The position numbers and the translations under genes were made by a program. A stretch of DNA of 64,000 nucleotides from an uncultured Actinomycetota bacterium (GTDB lineage Bacteria > Actinomycetota > Actinomycetes > CAVWCF01), in the NCBI GenBank assembly GCA_963753435.1, contig CAVWCF010000001.1, positions 1,636,502-1,700,501 on the forward strand. The letters run 5' to 3'. Shown here piece after piece: positions 51,250 to 62,000 of the stretch; positions within the stretch are counted from its first letter, which is position 1, and the number at the start of each line of letters is the position of its first letter. The notes below the pieces were generated by a model, which was given only the letters and a program-made list of their open reading frames with translations, did not search any database and was not told where the DNA came from.

Positions 51250-51314
51250 CCTATCGCAACAAGTGATGCGATAGGTCTATCACAGTGTTCTGCGCTAACG
51301 CAACAAGAGTTGCG
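51250..51314. promoter_or_regulatory. Two palindromic operators CGCAAC-N4-G(A/T)TGCG, probable TetR sites
   Basis: CGCAACAAGTGATGCG at 51255 (extended CCTATCGCA..TGCGATAGG) and CGCAACAAGAGTTGCG at 51299. Confidence 0.7.
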
Positions 51315-51320
51315 AAGAAG

Positions 51321-51393
51321 TGCCCCCGGCAGGATTCGAACCTGCGACACACGGTTTAGGAAACCGTTGCTCTATCCCCTGAGCTACGGGGGC
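51321..51393 (-). tRNA. tRNA-Arg(CCT); CCA not encoded
   Basis: GCCCCCG acceptor stem, TAGCTCAG..GGATAGAGC D-arm, ACGGT-TTCCTAA-ACCGT anticodon arm, GGTTCGAATCC T-loop. Confidence 0.97.
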
Positions 51394-51579
51394 GGGACGT
51401 GCGTAATTGCGTGCGGAAAACCTGGCTGGAGTTCTCGCGGTGGTGTTCGTCTCGCCGTGGCGGCGATTCTAGGTGCCGGTAGGGGCCGGATTGGTCGTCG
51501 CGGGACGGTCGTTGCTGCCTGATCTTGGTGGTGGGGCATGCCGAAGCGCCCGCGGGTAGCGGGGTCTGGAGGGGACGGG

Positions 51580-53118
51580 TCAGGCGACCAGGTCGGGTGG
51601 CGGTGCGTGTTGTCGGGTGATGGCGCGTTGCCATACGTGTAGTGCCCAGGCGTTCTGCGCCATGGCGGCGAGCAGGATGACGATGGTCTGCCGGTGAACG
51701 CCCCAGGCGGGCAGGCGTTGCTTGTGGAAGGCGAATTCGAGTTGGGCGTTCAGCGATTCGGTGTCCGCACGCATCCCGTAGAGGCGGTCGTAGTTGGTGT
51801 CGTCGATGGCGACGGCGCGGAGGTACTCGCCGCGGTGGAACCCGGATGCCTCGTCGGCGGCGACGGGGGTAAGCGGTTCCCACCACTTGTGGGTGGTCCC
51901 GGTCGCTGCGCACTTGAGGCGGTGCTCGGCATACAACGCCCAGCTGCCGTCGGCCTTGGGCTGCCGTTTGATTCCGCCGCGGAGGATGGGTTGGTAGTCA
52001 GGGGTCCCATCGACGGTGAGGACCTTCTCGAAGAGCCCACCCCCGGCGGCCCACAGGTCATGGCCGCAGTCGGCGAACGCCTTCGTGCGGGCGCGGGATG
52101 CTGGAAGTGGTTTCGCGGCGTGGCCGTAGCCGTTGGTGATGATCCCGCCGTGCTTCTTGTCTTTGCGTCGCGGTGGTGAGATGACGAGGCGGCCGGTGGC
52201 GGCCTGCACGGTGCTGATGTGGGTACCGCGCAGCGCCCCGTCGGTGACGAACCCGACGACACCGGGGGATTCCGAAGCAATGTCGATGGCGAGATCGGTG
52301 AACGGACCGCCCTCACCGCGACCGTCTTTGGTGATCCGTTGGATCCCACATACGACCCGATGCCCTGTCATCGGCGACCGAATGGAGGCGATGGCGTACT
52401 TAGATCCCCAGACGACGTCCTCGGTGCCCCCTTCGCCGTGGCGCCCGCGGGCTGGGTCCTGTCGGATGGGCCGGATCTCCCCGGTTCTCCGGTCGACTCG
52501 TTCAGTGTCCGTGGTTCGCAGGGGGGAGCTGAACACTTTCCCGTCGATGCCGACCAACCGGGTGCGGTCCGGTTTCGACCACGACAGGCCGTCCGGGTTG
52601 GCCAGGCCGACTTCATGTGCACGGGAGATTCCCAAGACGAGCTGCGTCGCGGTCAGATGCTCGAGGTGCCCGTCGAGTCGTCGGGTCAGATAGCCGTACT
52701 GGTCCCGGGTCGGTCCGCGGTCGGGGATCGGTTCGTCGGGTGGCAGGTTCGGCAGGGCTGCTTTCACGACCAGCGCCCAAAGCCCCGGCTCGGCCAAGTT
52801 GCGGGCGGCGGCTGCGGCGGAGCCGAACACGCTGATGGACTGGCCGAGGAGCAGCACCGCCCAGGTTGGGTGTTTCCGCGGCCGCCCACCGACCTTCGGG
52901 TCCCTCTGCGTCCATTCATCGATCCGATCCGCCAGGGCGAACAGGTGCGGATCGGCAGCGATCGCCTGCAAATGCGTGATCAGGGTTTGAGCGTCGTCGG
53001 CCTTCTCCCGCGCCGTCTGCCTTCGCAATACGAAGACGGCTTCGCGGACCTGCTCCGTGGTGGCGCCGTGCAGCCGCCGCCCCCTTCCAGGGGCCACCGC
53101 CGCACGACGCGCCGACAC
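51580..53118 (-). CDS. Divergent DDE transposase (IS4/IS5/IS1182-like architecture)
   Basis: GGRPR N-terminal motif; LVGIDGK (D1); WGSKY; FVTDGA (D2); YGMRADTESLN fits Y-x2-R-x3-E. Confidence 0.72.
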   Translation of the reverse strand: MSARRAAVAPGRGRRLHGATTEQVREAVFVLRRQTAREKADDAQTLITHLQAIAADPHLFALADRIDEWTQRDPKVGGRPRKHPTWAVLLLGQSISVFGSAAAAARNLAEPGLWALVVKAALPNLPPDEPIPDRGPTRDQYGYLTRRLDGHLEHLTATQLVLGISRAHEVGLANPDGLSWSKPDRTRLVGIDGKVFSSPLRTTDTERVDRRTGEIRPIRQDPARGRHGEGGTEDVVWGSKYAIASIRSPMTGHRVVCGIQRITKDGRGEGGPFTDLAIDIASESPGVVGFVTDGALRGTHISTVQAATGRLVISPPRRKDKKHGGIITNGYGHAAKPLPASRARTKAFADCGHDLWAAGGGLFEKVLTVDGTPDYQPILRGGIKRQPKADGSWALYAEHRLKCAATGTTHKWWEPLTPVAADEASGFHRGEYLRAVAIDDTNYDRLYGMRADTESLNAQLEFAFHKQRLPAWGVHRQTIVILLAAMAQNAWALHVWQRAITRQHAPPPDLVA

Positions 53119-53127
53119 GATCCCCGA

Positions 53128-54120
53128 CTACCCCCGCACCACGACAGCGGCCGCGTCGCCACGAATCTGGTCCGCCCACGCCGCCTGCCAATCGGCGTCG
53201 AGACGCCGCCGAGCAGCATCGAGGGACCGCAGACCCAGGACGTCGGCGACGTCTTCGACGCGGCCCGTCAAGGCGTAGCGGCGGTTCGCCGCATACGACT
53301 GCAACGACCCTGCCCGCACCCCGGCCCGATCTATCCCTGCCGCACGCAACGCCCGATGCAACGTGTGGGCAACCGCGGGAGCCAGGCTCTGCGGCTGATA
53401 CCGGTCCAGTGGCTGGCCCATCGCCAACGGCGCGGTGCCCGTATCAAACTCGACCCGCTTCCGCGCGGCCGCCCTACGCAGGGCGTCGACCCGCTGGTCC
53501 AGGGTCGCCACGGCCGCTGGCTCCAGCGCGACCACCCGAGGTCGGGATTGACCACGGCCCGCCAACCGCAGCGTCGCCGCCCTCGGGTCGAAATCAGCCA
53601 CCAGTGCCGCGGCGATGTCCGCCTGCGCGGCGCCCGCCAACGCCAACTCCACCGCCGCCGGGGACACTGTGTCCGCCGTCGACAATCGACCCGCGACCCG
53701 AAGACGCGCCACCTCCGACGGCGTCAGCGGCGGAATCGGACCCGGCGACCGATCGGGAGTGATTACGTCGGCTGGCACCAGGGCGGGATCCACCCAGCCG
53801 CGATCCACCCAGATCCGCGCTGCGGCCCGGAGCGCTCCCTGCCGGCCCCGCCGGGTCTGTGCCGCCACCGGCTGGCCCGCTCGCGCCCGTGACCCCGGCG
53901 ATACCGCGCTCACCGGAGCCGCCACCCACGCCCGACACAACCCAGGCGTCAGATCCGCTAGCGACGTGACGCCCGACGCCGTCGCGAACCGCGCGAACGT
54001 CTCGAGATGCCGTACGTAGAGCTGCTCCGTCCGAGGCGTCAGCCCCCCGGCCGCTCGGCGTTCAGCCCACGCCGCGGCAACTTCCGCCAGCCCGTTCGCC
54101 AGCGAAACTGATTCGACCAT
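53128..54120 (-). CDS. Tyrosine-recombinase (XerC/Int-fold) homolog, predicted catalytically inactive
   Basis: Core-binding-like TPRT..LY..HL..F; PLTPSEVARL; box I ELALAGAAQADI; AGRGQSRPRVV; box II AGSLQSYAA and VADVLGLRSLDAARRRL; GGAGG before ATG 54120. Confidence 0.75.
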   Translation of the reverse strand: MVESVSLANGLAEVAAAWAERRAAGGLTPRTEQLYVRHLETFARFATASGVTSLADLTPGLCRAWVAAPVSAVSPGSRARAGQPVAAQTRRGRQGALRAAARIWVDRGWVDPALVPADVITPDRSPGPIPPLTPSEVARLRVAGRLSTADTVSPAAVELALAGAAQADIAAALVADFDPRAATLRLAGRGQSRPRVVALEPAAVATLDQRVDALRRAAARKRVEFDTGTAPLAMGQPLDRYQPQSLAPAVAHTLHRALRAAGIDRAGVRAGSLQSYAANRRYALTGRVEDVADVLGLRSLDAARRRLDADWQAAWADQIRGDAAAVVVRG

Positions 54121-54271
54121 CACCGCCTCCGTTCTGCCGATCCGGACCACCCGAACCGTCTACTTCAAGTTGTAAGCCCCGACGGCGCGCATTTGTGTTC
54201 ACACTTCTGCGGCCGAATCAGCCCTCCGCCTCCAGAGAACAACCCCTGTCACGTCACACCGAAGTTAAAGG

Positions 54272-54315
54272 TTCAGAACCACCAACATTCTGAAATGTGA
54301 GTGCATGGATGTCAA
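54272..54315 (-). promoter_or_regulatory. Promoter TTGACA-N17-CAGAAT overlapped by inverted repeat TTCAGAA-N9-TTCTGAA
   Basis: TGTCAA at 54310-15 and ATTCTG at 54287-92 on the plus strand; inverted repeat at 54272-54294. Confidence 0.7.
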
Positions 54316-54348
54316 CCGTTGTCTGGGGCCGCCGCTACGGTCCGTGTT

Positions 54349-54552
54349 GTGGGGAAGCGCGTGGACCTGGACGACCTGGCTGATGCCGGCGATGTTGCGC
54401 GCCTGTTGGGTCTCGCCAACTCCGGCGCCGTCTACGTCTACCTGAATCGTTACCCGGAGATGCCGAGGCCGGTGTTCGACCGTGGCCCAGGCAAGGCGAA
54501 GCTGTGGCTTCGGTCAGAGGTGGCCGAATGGGCGGCTCAGCGGCGTGCATAG
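54349..54552 (+). CDS. AlpA/excisionase-like winged-HTH protein
   Basis: DL.DAGDVARLLGL...VYVY..RYPEMPRP...LWLRSEVAEWA. Confidence 0.75.
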   Translation: MGKRVDLDDLADAGDVARLLGLANSGAVYVYLNRYPEMPRPVFDRGPGKAKLWLRSEVAEWAAQRRA

Positions 54553-54904
54553 TTGTCGCGGCCCTCGTGTTGTCGCGGGACGTCGCCAGCGCAGTAGTCC
54601 TCGGACTGGCGCCCCGAACTCGGTGTTTCGGCACCTACGGAGGTCCGCGGATGTGGCCCGGCCGGCAGTGGAGTGGGCAAGCGCCTAGCCACATCCGCTG
54701 AGACCCGAAGCCGGGACTGCGCTGAGGTCCCGCACGTGCGCGCGAGGTGGGGTACCCAGGCTGCGTTGCCCGTATTGGTTCCAGCAGATGTCCGACAAGG
54801 ATCGCTGAACAACCCTTGACGTTTGCGGCAAGCAACGAGAGCCTGCATCTGACGGGGATGTCCGCGGAACTCGCCATGCCGGCGGGTATCCAGGGAGGCC
54901 CACG

Positions 54905-55730: not shown

Positions 55731-56051
55731 TCAGGCTTTCGTGACGGTGAGCAGGACGACCGCATCGGCGAGAGCTGTGACACCGTGTCGTCGCTGCGGT
55801 ACTGCGGCCAGGTCACCGGTCGCAAGTTCCATGGAGTCTGGCCCGGAGTGCAGTCGCACCCTGCCGTGGAGTACTTGCAGCGTTGCCTCGCCCGGATTCT
55901 CGTGGTCCTGGAGCGACTCGCCGGCTACCAGTGCCATCAGGACCTGACGGAGCCGGTGACCGGAGCCACCGATCAGCAGTTCCGAGTGTCGGCCGTTGGC
56001 AGACGTGGCCGCGCGTGCCAGTGCCTCCTGTGCGATGACCGTGACGTTCAT
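55731..56051 (-). CDS. Cupin-domain protein
   Basis: L.DHENPGEATLQVL.G, RHGV.A; ATGA overlap with the narI stop. Confidence 0.85.
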   Translation of the reverse strand: MNVTVIAQEALARAATSANGRHSELLIGGSGHRLRQVLMALVAGESLQDHENPGEATLQVLHGRVRLHSGPDSMELATGDLAAVPQRRHGVTALADAVVLLTVTKA

Positions 56052-56803
56052 CGCTTGCTCACCGGCTCCCATCCACGCAGCGGGTCGCGGCTGCCGAGGC
56101 GTTCGGTGTCCCTGGATCGGTACACCACAGCCGGCCGCGACAGGTAGCCGATCGGTGCGCTGAAGATGTGGACCAACCTGGTGAACGGGATCATCGCGAT
56201 CAGGATCAGCGACGCCATCGCATGCATACGGAACGACAGCGGTGCCTCAACCATCGCCTCGCCATCGGGGTTGAACCAGAAGATGCTGCGGAACCACTCC
56301 GCGACCGTGTCCCGGTAGTTGTAGCCGCCCTCGAACTCCCCGGTGATATTGAAGAGGTTGATACCGATGGTGTTGAACGCGCCCAGGAGGATCGTCGAGG
56401 CGAGCACTAGGTACATGGCCTTGTCCATGGGCGTGGTCACCCGGAAGACCGGCCCGACCATGCGCCGCCGGTAGATGAGAATCACCAGCCCGCTGACGAC
56501 CATCAGCCCCGCAATCGTGCCGGCGGTCACTGCGACCAGGTGGTAGAGGTCCTCGCTGATACCGGCGGCCTCGGTCCACGACTCCGGGATGACCAGCCCG
56601 AGGATGTGTCCGCCCAACGCGAGCAGGATGCCGAAGTGGAACAGTGGGCTGCCCAGCCGCAGCAATCGGCTCTCGTACATCTGGCTGGAGCGCGTGGTCC
56701 AGCCAAACCGGTCGTACTTGTAGCGCCAGAACATGCCGACGGCGAAGACCGCTAGCGCAACGTACGGGAGAACCTCCCAGACGAACTTCTGCAAGGTGGT
56801 CAT
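56048..56803 (-). CDS. narI: Respiratory nitrate reductase gamma subunit
   Basis: RY.YD.FGWTTRSSQ, LFHFGIL, GH..G, WFRSI, PFTRLVH. Confidence 0.96.
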   Translation of the reverse strand: MTTLQKFVWEVLPYVALAVFAVGMFWRYKYDRFGWTTRSSQMYESRLLRLGSPLFHFGILLALGGHILGLVIPESWTEAAGISEDLYHLVAVTAGTIAGLMVVSGLVILIYRRRMVGPVFRVTTPMDKAMYLVLASTILLGAFNTIGINLFNITGEFEGGYNYRDTVAEWFRSIFWFNPDGEAMVEAPLSFRMHAMASLILIAMIPFTRLVHIFSAPIGYLSRPAVVYRSRDTERLGSRDPLRGWEPVSKR

Positions 56804-57426
56804 TTGCGCACCCCAACTCCGGTCAGTTCCGCGGGTCCGAACGGCTCCAGGCCCACCTGCTCGGTCGGTGGCCCCTGAACCGCCAGCACCGACGCGGCCT
56901 CCAGTTCGGCCGAGTCGGCCGGCGGCAACGTTTCGATTACTACGTCGATGACGTCCGCATACGACGACCCGGCCTGGCGCAGCGACGTTCGCAACAACTC
57001 CAGCCCCCGGCGGTGCTGTTGCAGCAAGGCCACGGCTTCGGTGGGGGCGTCGATGCTGAACTCCAGCACCACGGGCAGGAAGTCCGGCAGTTCGGAGTCG
57101 TCGAATCGCAGACCGGCGGCCGCGTAGACCTCCTTGAACCGCACCAGCGCCATTCCGCGCAACCGGGTGTCGCCGTTGAGGTAGTACGACAGGTACAAAC
57201 AGCACCGCCGTTTCTGGTCGAACGTCTCCACATAGTCGGCCTGACGCTGCATCAGCGGTTCCGCCAACGCTGAGTCGATGAACCCGACTAGCCCAGCACG
57301 CAGTTTCGTCGGCAACCCAGCGGCCACGGTCCGCAACTCGAGCAAGGTCGCCTCAGCGCCCGTCTCCGAATCCGGGTAGAGGAGCAGTCGCCCGGCTAGC
57401 GCCCGCGCCAACGTCTCACTTGTCAT
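56800..57426 (-). CDS. narJ: Nitrate reductase molybdenum cofactor assembly chaperone
   Basis: YVETFD, LYLSYY..GDTR.RG.AL, ELPDFLPVVLEF. Confidence 0.95.
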   Translation of the reverse strand: MTSETLARALAGRLLLYPDSETGAEATLLELRTVAAGLPTKLRAGLVGFIDSALAEPLMQRQADYVETFDQKRRCCLYLSYYLNGDTRLRGMALVRFKEVYAAAGLRFDDSELPDFLPVVLEFSIDAPTEAVALLQQHRRGLELLRTSLRQAGSSYADVIDVVIETLPPADSAELEAASVLAVQGPPTEQVGLEPFGPAELTGVGVRK

Positions 57427-59074
57427 CGTCAGCTCCTTGTTTGGGCGGGAACATTCCTGGCGGTGGCTCGCCGCCGCCCCACGTGAGGAGATCCACCGAA
57501 CCGGACTCGGGCAGGTCCGAGTGCCGCTCTGCTTCTGCGCGCAGGCGAGTCAGGTGGAACGACTCCACCGAAGCCGGGCTTGGACGCACTTCACCAGTTG
57601 CGGATACCGCACCCATCCCGGGGCCACCCGACACGTCCAGGCTGCAGCCCTCCAGGCTCTCCTCCAGGGCCGCTGCCTGTTCGGCGTGTGCCGCCGGTAT
57701 CACGTAGCGCTCCTCGTATTTGGCGATGGCCAGCAGCCGGTACATCTCCTCCAGCTGCTCCACTTCCAAGCCGACCGCGGCCGGAATCGACACGTCGGGC
57801 TCGCGACCCAGGTTCACGTCGCGCATGAACGAACGCATGGCGGCGAGTTTGCGCAAGGCGGCGTCCACCGGTCCGGCATCGCCGGCCGACAGCAGCCCGG
57901 CCAGGTAGTCGATGGGGATTCGCAGCGCCTCTATCGCGCCGAACAGGTTGCCGGCCGATTCGCCGTCATTGCCGGTGTTGGCTAGCGCGTCGACCACTGG
58001 CGACAGCGGCGGGACGTACCAGACCATGGGCATGGTCCGGTACTCCGGATGCAGCGGAAGCGCGACGCCGTAGACCTTGGCCAAGGCGTAGACAGGTGAA
58101 CGCTGCGCAGCCGAAATCCAGTCCTCCGGCATACCACCGGCCCGGGCCCCGGCAACGACCTCGGGATCGTTGGGGTCCAGGAGCAGATCCAACTGAGCGG
58201 CGAGCAAGTCCTTGTCGTCCTTGACCGACGCTGCGGCGGTCACCTTGTCTGCGTCGTACAGGAACAGACCGAGGTAGCGGAGTCGACCGACGCAGGTCTC
58301 CGAACACACCGTTGGCATGCCCACCTCAATGCGCGGGTAGCACAGCGTGCACTTCTCCGCCTTGCCCGTGCGGTGGTTGAAGTACACCTTCTTGTACGGG
58401 CAGCCGGAGATGCACATGCGCCAGCCGCGGCAGCGGTCCTGATCGACCAGCACGATTCCGTCTTCAGCGCGCTTGTACATCGCCCCGGACGGGCAGGACG
58501 CCACGCAAGCCGGGTTCAGGCAGTGCTCGCAGATGCGCGGCAGGTAGAACATGAACGTCTTCTCGAACTCCAGGCGCACCTGGTCGCCGATCGACTGCAG
58601 GATCGGATCACCGGGCGCCGTTTCCGGTGCCCCACCGAGATCGTCATCCCAGTTGGCGCTCCATTTGATGGCCATGTCCTTGCCCGTGATCATCGACTTC
58701 GGCCGCGCCACCGGAACGGTGTCCGTCGCCGGCGAGGAGATCAGGTTGTCGTAGTCGTAGGTCCACGGCTCGTAGTAGTCGTCAAGACTCGGCAACTTCG
58801 GATTGGCGAAGATCGTGGCCAGACGCTTGAGTCGCGAGCCACCCTTTAGTCGTAGCCGGCCGCGACGGGTCAGTTCCCATCCGCCCTTCCACTGCTCCTG
58901 GTCCTCGTAGCGACGCGGGTAACCGAGGCCCGGACGTGTCTCCACGTTGTTGAACCACACGTACTCAGTGCCCGAGCGGTTCGTCCACGTCTGCTTGCAG
59001 GTGACCGAGCACGTGTGACACCCGATGCACTTGTCCAGGTTCATCACCATGCCCAGCTGGGCCATGACGCGCAT
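57416..59074 (-). CDS. narH: Respiratory nitrate reductase beta subunit
   Basis: NLDKCIGCHTCSVTCK, CEHCLNPAC, CRGWRMC, PLHPEYRT. Confidence 0.98.
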   Translation of the reverse strand: MRVMAQLGMVMNLDKCIGCHTCSVTCKQTWTNRSGTEYVWFNNVETRPGLGYPRRYEDQEQWKGGWELTRRGRLRLKGGSRLKRLATIFANPKLPSLDDYYEPWTYDYDNLISSPATDTVPVARPKSMITGKDMAIKWSANWDDDLGGAPETAPGDPILQSIGDQVRLEFEKTFMFYLPRICEHCLNPACVASCPSGAMYKRAEDGIVLVDQDRCRGWRMCISGCPYKKVYFNHRTGKAEKCTLCYPRIEVGMPTVCSETCVGRLRYLGLFLYDADKVTAAASVKDDKDLLAAQLDLLLDPNDPEVVAGARAGGMPEDWISAAQRSPVYALAKVYGVALPLHPEYRTMPMVWYVPPLSPVVDALANTGNDGESAGNLFGAIEALRIPIDYLAGLLSAGDAGPVDAALRKLAAMRSFMRDVNLGREPDVSIPAAVGLEVEQLEEMYRLLAIAKYEERYVIPAAHAEQAAALEESLEGCSLDVSGGPGMGAVSATGEVRPSPASVESFHLTRLRAEAERHSDLPESGSVDLLTWGGGEPPPGMFPPKQGADDDK

Positions 59075-62000
59075 CAGTACTGCACCTCCTGCGAGCGCCG
59101 GCGGATCACTGTGACTTCGTCACGCTGATTACCGGTGGGGCCGTAGTAGTTGAAGCCGTAGGAGAACTGGCCATACCCGCCGATGAGGTGAGTGGGTTTC
59201 AACAGCAGCCGGGTCAACGAGTTGTGAATCCCGCCGCGTTTGCCGGTCGCCTCCACTCTCGGGACGTCCACCGTCCGGTCCTTCGCGTGGTACATGAAGA
59301 CCGTCCCCTCCGGCATTCGGTGGCTGACCACGGCACGGGCGACCACCACGCCGTTGCGGTTGACCGCCTCGATCCACTCGTTGTCCTTGACGCCGATCTT
59401 GGCTGCGTCCTCGACGCTCATCCAGATGTCCGGACCACCGCGAGACAGCGCCAGCATGAAGAGGTTGTCCTGGTACTCCGAATGGATGGACCACTTGGAG
59501 TGTGGCGTTAGATACCGGACGGCAACTCCGACCTCGTCGACGTCACCGATCTTCGGGTAGCCGGAGAGCACGTGCAGATTCAGCGGCGGTCGGTAAACCG
59601 GGAACCACTCTCCCGACTCAGCCATCCAGTCGTGGTCGACGAAGAAGTGTTGGCGACCTGACAACGTGTGCCAGGGCTTGAGTCGTTCGACATTGATGAC
59701 GAACGGGCTGTAACGCCGGCCGCCGTGTTCGCTGCCGGACCACTCCCAGGAGGTGACCACTGGCTGTGGTCGCGCCTGTGTGTCGGCGAACGTGATCTGG
59801 GTGCCCTCGTGGTCCTCGGCCAAGTCCGCCAATCGCTGCCCCGTGCGCTGCTCCAGTTGCTTGAAGCCAGCGACGGCCACTTGGCCGTTGGAAACGCCGG
59901 ACAGGGTCAGGATCGCCTCGCAGGCCTGTTCCGCCGTCTTCAGTTGGGGGCGGCCGTCAGCAACGCCACCCTGGGTGGTCCCGTTGACTCGACGAAGCCG
60001 CTCCACCGATTCCGGCTGCTTCAGGGTCACACCCTTGACGACGGTGCCGAGGTTCTCCACGTTCGGACCCAGGCTGCTCATCATGTCGGAAAGCGCCCCA
60101 TAGTCGCGTTCGACCACCATCAGCCCGGGCATCGTCTGACCGGGGATCGGCTCGCACTCTCCCGCCTTCCAGTCGAGAACCCGGCCACCCGGCTGCGCCG
60201 TCTCCCCAGGAGTGTCGTGCTGCAACGGCATCGCCACCAGGTCCTTGCGGACACCTAGGTGCTTGGCCGCCAAGCGGCTGAACACCTTCGCCATGTCCTG
60301 GAACGCGTCGTAGTCACTCCGGGTCTGCCACGGCGGCGCGATCGCGGCATTGAAAGCGTGGATGAACGGGTGCATGTCCGTGCTGGACAGGTCGTACTTC
60401 TCGTACCAGGTCGCCGCCGGTAGCAGCACGTCCGAGAACAGCCCGGTCGACGTCATCCGGAAGTCCATGCTGACCAGCAGATCCAGCTTCCCTACCGGGG
60501 CTTCCTCGCGCCAAACGACGCTTTCGGGCCGCGATTCCGGCGGAGTCTCGACCGCGTTGCCGACGGCACCATCCGCGCCGAGCAGGTGGTGCAGGAAGTA
60601 CTCGTTGCCCTTGCCGGAACTGCCCAGCAGATTCGCGCGCCAGACGGTGAGCACCCTTGGGAAGTTGACCGGGTTGTCCGGGTCCTCTGCAGCGAATCGC
60701 AGCGAGCCGGACTTCAGTTGCTCGACCGTGTAGTCCGCGGGGCTCACACCGGCGGACTCGGCCTCGTCCACCAGGTCCAAGGGGTTGCGGTCGAAGGTCG
60801 GGTAACTCGGCGTCCACCCCATGCGGGCCGCCTGCGCGAGCGTGTCGGCCATCGCCTTGCCCGCGAACGAACCATGACCGGTCTTGGCGGCGATCTGCTC
60901 CGCACCGAACGCGTCGTACCGCCACTGGTCGGTGTTGAGGTACCAGAACGAAGTGCCGGCCATCTGCCGCGGCGGCCGTCGCCAGTCCAAGCCGAAGGCC
61001 AGTTGCGCCCAGCCCGTGAACGGCCGCGCCTTCTCCTGCCCGACGTAGTGCGCCCACCCGCCGCCGTTCTTGCCCTGGCATCCGGTCAGTAGCACCAACG
61101 CGATGATGGCTCGGTAGATGGTGTCGGAGTGGTACCAGTGGTTGGTTCCAGCCCCCAGGGCGATCATTGAACGCCCCCCGGACTCCAGCGCATTGGCGGC
61201 GAACTCCCGGCCGATCCGCTCCACGGTGTCTGCCGGCACGGAGGTGATCTCCTCCTGCCAAGCGGGCGTGTACGGGGAGTCGGCATCGTCGTAGCCCCTG
61301 GCCCATTGCCCGGGCAGACCATCACGGCCAACCCCGTACTGGGCCAGCAACAGGTCGTAGACCGTCGTGACCTTGCGGCCCGCAACGGTGCGCACCGGCA
61401 CGCCGCGCCGAATCACCTCGCCGCGCTCATCGGCATCTCGACCGATGTCGAAGCGCGGCAGAAGGACTTCCACCGAGTCCGCGCCGGGGTACACGCTCAG
61501 CAGCGGGTCAACGCCCTCAAGGTCCAGGTTCCACCGACCCATGCCGGAGTCGGTGTGCCGGAAGCCCAACGATCCGTTGGGAACGACCGGCTCGCCGCTC
61601 GTCGAATCCAGCAGGACGGTCTTCCACTCCTGCTTGTCCCCGTCCTGGCCCAGGTCGGCGGCCGTCAGGAACCGTCCGGGAATGTAAGCGCCGTCCTTCT
61701 CGTCCAGCGTCACCAACATCGGCAGGTCGGTGTACTGCTTGGAGTAGTCGACAAACGCGGGGGTGGGCGAGTCGACGTAGAACTCCTTGAGAATGACGTG
61801 GCCCATTGCCATCGCCAGCGCGCCATCGGTTCCTGGGTGCGCGGCCAGCCACTCGTCGGCGAACTTGGTGTTGTCGGCGTAGTCGGGGCTGACCGTCACG
61901 ACCTTCTGTCCGCGGTAGCGGGCCTCGGTCATGAAGTGGGCGTCCGGGGTCCGCGTCGTGGGGATGTTCGAGCCCCACATGATCAGGTACGAGGCGTTCC

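Follow-up and report, generated by a model that had tools for sequence, protein, structure and literature searches.

What does a protein with the fold of a tyrosine recombinase but none of its catalytic residues do between a DDE transposase gene and a small divergent gene, beside a tRNA-Arg gene? The question is raised by a three-gene locus in a 64,000-nt stretch of DNA from an uncultured actinobacterium, here called the window; loci of relatives are labelled with L numbers and sampled genomes with G numbers. An earlier interpretation of the sequence (the original prediction) took the inactive recombinase for a target selector or end-synapsis factor that would steer the transposase to tRNA-adjacent sites. 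Of the three findings that would have refuted it, namely homologues with the catalytic residues kept, a gene pair that does not recur and a 512-amino-acid protein without an RNase H/DDE fold, none was made. Comparison with relatives leaves little doubt that the locus represents a real and apparently undescribed transposon family. The reading favoured here, to which we give a probability of about 0.6, is that the window contains a transposon's mobility core and its right end, that members of the family insert at bases 1-8 of tRNA genes and duplicate them, and that the dead recombinase positions a Tn5-like enzyme. The selector role of the recombinase-fold protein is itself judged probable from sequence comparison.

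The loss of catalytic positions in this protein was confirmed by alignment to the two intact Xer-type recombinases of the same genome. Box I G-x-R reads GAA, GKG reads GRG, HxLRH reads GSLQS, LGH reads LGL and the tyrosine is an arginine, so that the R-K-H-R-H/W-Y set of active enzymes is represented by A/R/G/Q/L/R. The 330-amino-acid model aligns end to end with two-domain Xer/Int structures and has the core-binding and catalytic-domain fold of active tyrosine recombinases, while profile searches returned no Pfam match and only a weak XerC score in NCBIfam (E 0.011). The catalytic residues are absent in homologues as well: the set is incomplete across 124 relatives, the first arginine being kept in five of these proteins and the tyrosine in four, neither catalytic histidine is among the eight commonest residues of its column, and a new replacement motif, G-x-x-S-L-D, is common to the relatives. 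The ratio of nonsynonymous to synonymous substitution (dN/dS) lies below 1, as the original prediction expected, at 0.21-0.34 in all eight pairs. At E<=1e-10 the protein is matched by 499 representatives, a count that may include active recombinases. At L099 (G299:C1:846224-848234), two tandem dead recombinase genes precede a single broken transposase gene at a tRNA-Arg(CCT) gene.

The neighbouring 512-amino-acid protein carries the complete D-D-E triad ascribed to it (D192, D293, E454), together with a Y-x2-R-x3-E motif, and none of 22 aligned transposases, at 20-51% identity, lacks the D, D, R or E. Its fold is a Tn5-like RNase H/DDE fold, the best match being the Tn5 (IS50) transposase (PDB 1mm8) at a sequence identity of 10%. 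No named insertion sequence family profile claims it: there is no Pfam match, the NCBIfam IS1380 score is weak (E 0.065, 11.8 bits against a cut-off of 180), and its atlas neighbours are unnamed, one cluster carrying DDE_Tnp_1 on 10% of its members. Fold, triad and motif are those of the Tn5-like IS4 superfamily; the inverted repeats and target duplication expected of that superfamily are present in relatives, and in the window the right end only.

The two genes also occur together elsewhere. The transposase gene lies directly 3' of the recombinase-like gene in nine of ten metagenome loci, the tenth contig ending inside the gene, and in 15/15 loci from a 401-genome sample of the phylum. In that sample 20 matches at E<1e-46, above a gap, gave the 15 loci, the genome of the window and three matches in an unpublished genome being left out and one locus accounting for two matches. 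Read from the transposase, 10 of the 11 loci that keep its 5' part have upstream either the recombinase gene (8) or a C-terminal remnant of it (2). The identities of the two proteins co-vary over 20 pairs (rho 0.65; 0/5000 permutations), and at almost all loci the recombinase gene runs right up to the transposase start or into it. The small gene was found by tblastn (48-68% identity, E<1e-15) in 11 related loci, where it is divergent from the recombinase gene or its remnant. Many element copies are broken. The family was detected in 29 of the 401 sampled actinobacterial genomes by its transposase and in 27 by its end motif, one of these a chance match, or about 7% either way; in the 2.17-Mb assembly studied here, whose relatives mark the host as an actinomycete, both large genes are single-copy.

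Insertion at tRNA genes, which the original prediction had proposed, is borne out to the single base pair by the junctions in relatives. In 26 of 43 loci a tRNA gene (18 Arg-CCT, 6 Arg-TCT, 2 Lys-TTT) begins 176-227 bp after the transposase gene on the same strand, and junction alignment places a conserved right end against tRNA base +1. In most of the remaining 17 loci this end is followed by the first bases of a tRNA and then by the inverted repeat of a further copy, or by a contig edge; L031, L036 and L042, among these 17, are fragments without the end. Distant members lie at a tRNA gene in 12 of 15 loci, namely Arg-CCT (5), Phe-GAA (3), Lys-TTT (2) and Ala-TGC (2). The ends begin AGG/GGG, and in relatives both of them carry inverted repeats whose 10-bp cores are in register. 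The duplicated octamer follows the sequence of each target, so that the spacer changes with the target; because the ninth base departs from the tRNA at L098, L129, L168 and L174, the duplication is of 8 bp, not nine, with both ends in register. A search of 401 genomes of the class that left the spacer open found 19 exact end-to-end junctions, and 17 of them contained a tRNA-Arg 5' octamer. Extra octamer copies at the L022, L023, L037 and L174 junctions fit repeated duplication. A single orientation is seen at tRNA genes, the transposase end facing a tRNA that is intact after insertion. As controls, the right end is absent 5' of eight of nine tRNA-Arg(CCT) genes of other genomes (three of the nine from the unpublished genomes G434, G423 and G430), and in the genome studied here it occurs once and is absent 5' of the other 47 tRNA calls.

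Variations were noted at a few loci. At L129 (G557:C185:1115-1142) the terminal bases of the two ends, T and G, are swapped around the same octamer; at L107 and L190 (G264:C21), of a distant branch, the junction spacer, which may be one of 9 bp, appears to be displaced upstream from the start of the tRNA by about two bases. At L005:3215-3520 a complete three-gene core adjoins a tRNA-Lys(TTT) gene that has lost its 3' half after the anticodon arm, probably through another element.

The right end appears to bring a promoter with it. A TA[ACG]A[AC]T hexamer lies within this end, 71-84 bp upstream of the tRNA, in 50 of 53 end-tRNA junctions (some of them sites fetched twice), against a background of 0.5%, and L098 has a similar hexamer left behind at its outer left junction, 13 bp ahead of the duplication. 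The pattern suggests that the element displaces the native tRNA promoter and supplies its own. Right ends with the -10 box before tRNA-Arg and no transposase nearby occur at L113/L214 (G411), L198, L219 and L220, as if retained as the tRNA promoter.

Complete elements bracketed by both duplications measure 4.1 kb (L008) and 5.0 kb (L098) and contain the three genes and small open reading frames without Pfam matches; no ATPase gene was found in them. In stacks, the units bounded by a left and a right end measure 0.9-5.1 kb; many retain no more of the transposase gene than its 3' part, and their cargo includes regulators, transporters and metabolic and surface-protein genes. In Nocardioides agariphilus (L003:2167-8453), HmaA/HmaB defence genes stand directly upstream of the core; the left end of this locus was not located.

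The choice of tRNA bears on which protein reads the target. A pattern joining the end to a tRNA, open to any acceptor stem, gave 34 matches in 27/401 genomes against six for the reversed control; the 30 loci that were read comprised 15 Arg-CCT, 13 Arg-TCT, one Lys-TTT and one that is not a tRNA, with no Arg-CCG. In the genome of the window the Arg-CCG gene shares its first 26 bases with the target Arg-CCT gene, yet it is unoccupied, which implies either that bases beyond 26 are read or that insertion at a busy tRNA is not tolerated. Reading of bases beyond 26 points to a separate DNA-binding selector. In the tree, moreover, the recombinases of Phe- and Ala-targeting elements form supported clades of their own (100/99 and 100/100).

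On these grounds a mechanism can be sketched for the favoured reading. The recombinase-fold protein would clamp on the tRNA gene, probably 25-40 bp away from where the element inserts, over the stretch from D-arm to anticodon arm, and would recruit the transposase without a TnsC-type ATPase. Cutting and joining of the ends is likely the work of the Tn5-like enzyme, whose strand transfer would, on the model of Tn5/IS4 chemistry, have an 8-bp stagger. The -10 box of the right end would then re-supply the promoter, making the insertion tolerable and restoring the target for a further copy, while the small divergent gene may regulate the recombinase-transposase pair or bind the ends. A further-reaching version, which we hold tentatively and at slightly less than even odds, is that in a widespread actinobacterial family two working proteins, a Tn5-type transposase and a domesticated integrase reading anticodon-arm DNA, suffice for base-exact oriented insertion of the Tn7 kind, direct docking at +1, promoter replacement and array-like stacking of cargo, and that changing the integrase retargets the element.

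Several observations weigh against the favoured reading. L105 is the sole full-length transposase seen without a recombinase partner; it is distant and not at a tRNA, and such cases are too few to serve as a control. Neither are L108, L183 and L187/L188 at tRNA genes, nor any of the three plasmid copies examined, which carry the recombinase gene; copies away from tRNA genes may represent a second route, off-target events or rearranged relics. The 19 end-to-end junctions all come from one family, tandem junctions being mostly of one genome family, and the genome sets overlap. Users of Lys-TTT are scattered among those of Arg-CCT in the tree, so protein and target are not one-to-one, and kin clades share targets regardless of which protein reads them, so that kinship alone could give the Phe and Ala clades. 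The targets of the close clade read rare codons (AGG 2.9, AGA 1.0 and AAA 1.7 per 1000 codons here, CGG standing at 26.3), and host tolerance could thus explain the missing Arg-CCG; to judge from the Phe-GAA clade, tolerance does not fully account for the choice of tRNA. Finally, no true empty allele was recovered for the locus of the window.

The plasmid copies are those of Streptomyces mirabilis pI, Mycobacterium kansasii pMK12478 and M. intracellulare pMyong1 (L236-L238; NZ_CP074103.1, NC_022654.1 and NC_020275.1), which have the same gene pair; the dead recombinase is intact in pI and pMK12478 and broken in one of the three. The two Mycobacterium copies have a family-type right end with a -10-like box and no tRNA, and plasmids are a possible route of spreading.

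Among the alternatives, the one that survives best, though we consider it unlikely, is that recognition of the tRNA gene falls to the transposase, and that the dead recombinase binds the ends, in synapsis or excision, or acts as a transcriptional regulator. Integrase-fold repressors provide a precedent for such a role. However, a separate small divergent gene is available as a regulator, the tight abutment of the recombinase gene on the transposase start tells against it, and discrimination apparently takes place 25-40 bp from the cut, beyond the known reach of Tn5-type enzymes. Distinctly less probable is indirect targeting, in which the complex would be drawn to tRNA promoters or the transcription machinery, in a Ty3-like manner, and the tRNA choice would reflect the insertions that a host survives. 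Insertion at the mature 5' end, beside the promoter, and the restriction of the close clade to rare-codon tRNAs agree with this idea, but the targets of the sister clade are Ala-TGC and Phe-GAA, whose codon TTC has a frequency of 26.6 per 1000 here, and the position is base-exact although the DNA upstream of tRNA-Arg genes is not conserved.

It could also be supposed that the end-octamer-end junction is an attP-like core at which a tyrosine recombinase acting in trans (host XerC/D or another integrase) integrates the element, with the DDE gene as a passenger. An 8-bp spacer between inverted repeats does resemble the core site of a tyrosine recombinase, and the genome encodes two intact Xer-type enzymes. 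We regard this as very improbable, given that the DDE triad is kept across 20-51% identity, that the spacer varies with the target and that octamer copies accumulate as in duplication, unlike in conservative exchange. Least credible of all, and contradicted by the shared replacement motif among the relatives (499 representatives, with the caveat given above), the near-obligate linkage and a dN/dS well under 1, is a decaying integrase that became the chance neighbour of an insertion sequence, for which the lack of a Pfam match, the weak XerC similarity and the many broken copies might be cited.

Within the window (Table 1), the coordinates originally given for the two large open reading frames and their 9-bp gap were reproduced, as was a small divergent frame at 54301-54552 (+), whose start is more probably the GTG at 54349; its xis/AlpA-like label was not sustained, since the product has no Pfam or NCBIfam match. 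The recombinase gene starts with ATG; the ribosome-binding site attributed to it was recovered as GGAGG 5 nt upstream, and a candidate for its promoter is TTGACA-17-CAGAAT at 54315-54287 (-), a promoter-like sequence found once against 0.2 +/- 0.5 expected. The span assigned to the unit was 51580..54552, but the unit itself is larger, its right end reaching 51394. Adjacency to the tRNA-Arg(CCT) gene, 186 bp beyond the transposase stop, likewise holds, with the qualification that the tRNA lies on the - strand, so that the element sits at its 5' end and not at the usual 3' end.

Table 1. Features of the transposon locus and its tRNA target in the window
Feature	Position	Strand	Basis
tRNA-Arg(CCT) gene, target; intact, element adjoins base +1	51320..51393	-	ARAGORN and junction alignment
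tRNA bases 1-8 (GCCCCCGT), right-hand copy of the family's 8-bp target duplication	51386..51393	-	junctions in relatives
Right end: terminal inverted repeat (GGGACGTGCG, inward reading) and conserved sub-terminal block	51394..51422	.	conserved directly 5' of tRNA in related loci
-10-like hexamer TAGAAT in the right end, towards the tRNA; predicted replacement promoter	51466..51471	-	hexamer type recurs at junctions
Tn5/IS4-like DDE transposase, 512 amino acids (D192, D293, E454)	51580..53118	-	
Catalytically dead tyrosine-recombinase-fold protein, 330 amino acids (core-binding and catalytic-type domains); likely target selector	53128..54120	-	
Sigma-70-like promoter match directed at the recombinase-transposase pair; predicted function	54287..54315	-	consensus scan, 10/12 matches
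Small conserved divergent gene, about 67 amino acids, probably helix-turn-helix DNA-binding; regulator or end-binding accessory	54349..54552	+	tblastn
Candidate decayed left end (ACGTGCGG core 54737-54730, -) and outer edge of variable slot at 54765; not secure	54728..54765	.	

The genes and right end of the window copy are intact. A left-end profile search found no left end, and a search of the genome found no left-hand octamer copy of the duplication; on its - strand the window has a single occurrence, at 54737, of the 8-mer that forms the core of the left repeat. Contigs of two runs, from two studies, match only from 54765 onward and have unlike DNA before that point. Tentatively, then, the window element probably measures about 3.35 kb, carries no cargo and has a left end that has decayed; with no recognisable left end, this copy may itself be immobile.

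Compared with known systems, the element resembles the IS4 family and Tn5 (IS50) in its best fold match, its D-D-E triad and Y-x2-R-x3-E motif, its short terminal inverted repeats and a duplication of similar length (9 bp in Tn5), and differs from them in having two additional conserved genes, in inserting at tRNA genes base-exactly and in one orientation, in stacking in tandem, and in its 10% identity and the lack of a Pfam or NCBIfam family above cut-off. With the tyrosine integrases of tRNA-integrating phages and islands, which work with a small excisionase and usually cross over in the 3' half of the tRNA, it shares the integrase fold, the small divergent gene and a tRNA restored after insertion, whereas here there are no catalytic residues and no long duplicated tRNA 3' part, and the 5' end is targeted. 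Tn7-like transposons typically have TGT/ACA ends and duplicate 5 bp of target, in contrast to the 8 bp and AGG/GGG ends found here, and neither a TnsC AAA+ ATPase nor a TniQ/TnsD gene was found in the complete elements L008 and L098; on these counts the element falls outside the Tn7-like group.

In Tn6022-type Tn7-like transposons, TnsF combines an inactivated tyrosine-recombinase domain with tandem core-binding domains and with zinc fingers at its N-terminus, and it targets comM together with TniQ (PMC10293859), while Tsy is described there as needing active tyrosine recombinases (Faure et al. 2023, PMC10293859). The likeness to the window protein lies in an inactivated tyrosine-recombinase-domain protein beside a DDE system with a fixed chromosomal site; the window protein has a plain Xer-like two-domain fold without the zinc fingers and tandem core-binding domains, and its partner is a Tn5-like transposase making an 8-bp duplication at tRNA base +1, with no TnsC/TniQ found. 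The tRNA-targeting Tn7-like elements and CRISPR-associated transposons (I-B2, I-D, V-K) use TnsD/TniQ or guide RNAs and typically have TGT/ACA ends (PMC11406308). They too are DDE transposons for which tRNA genes serve as safe attachment sites; theirs are found by a dedicated selector, as is likely here, and the insertion is displaced from the recognised sequence. None of those selectors, guides or ends was seen here, and the window element cuts into the first bases of the gene and apparently brings a promoter. The phage repressors MrpR and SroF (PDB 8a0a, 9rd5) similarly reuse the tyrosine-recombinase fold for DNA binding but are prophage repressors, and the portions of the two reports available mention no transposase partner (PMC10516654, 10.1101/2025.11.27.690993). 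No description of this transposon family was found in the literature searched, whose coverage excludes supplements and subscription papers.

The protein-guided site-specific DDE transposons compared here are Tn7-like and rely on TnsC/TniQ-type parts. If the favoured reading is true, a Tn5-type enzyme aimed by a single dead integrase would solve the targeting problem a second time, independently and at a far smaller size, and the tyrosine-recombinase fold would have been co-opted twice as a selector; GC-rich bacteria would also gain a compact tool for integration at a single site, of which natural variants exist for at least five tRNA targets. Insertions at tRNA starts would be missed by island finders tuned to 3' ends.

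Two further features of the window were noted. Imperfect inverted repeats at 51254-51315 and 54635-54710, just 3' of the tRNA and of the small divergent gene, are possibly terminators. The nitrate-reductase cluster region at 55744-60403 has a second, 92%-identical copy at the start of contig C5 (G000:C5:1-4659), either a paralogue or a strain variant in the assembly.
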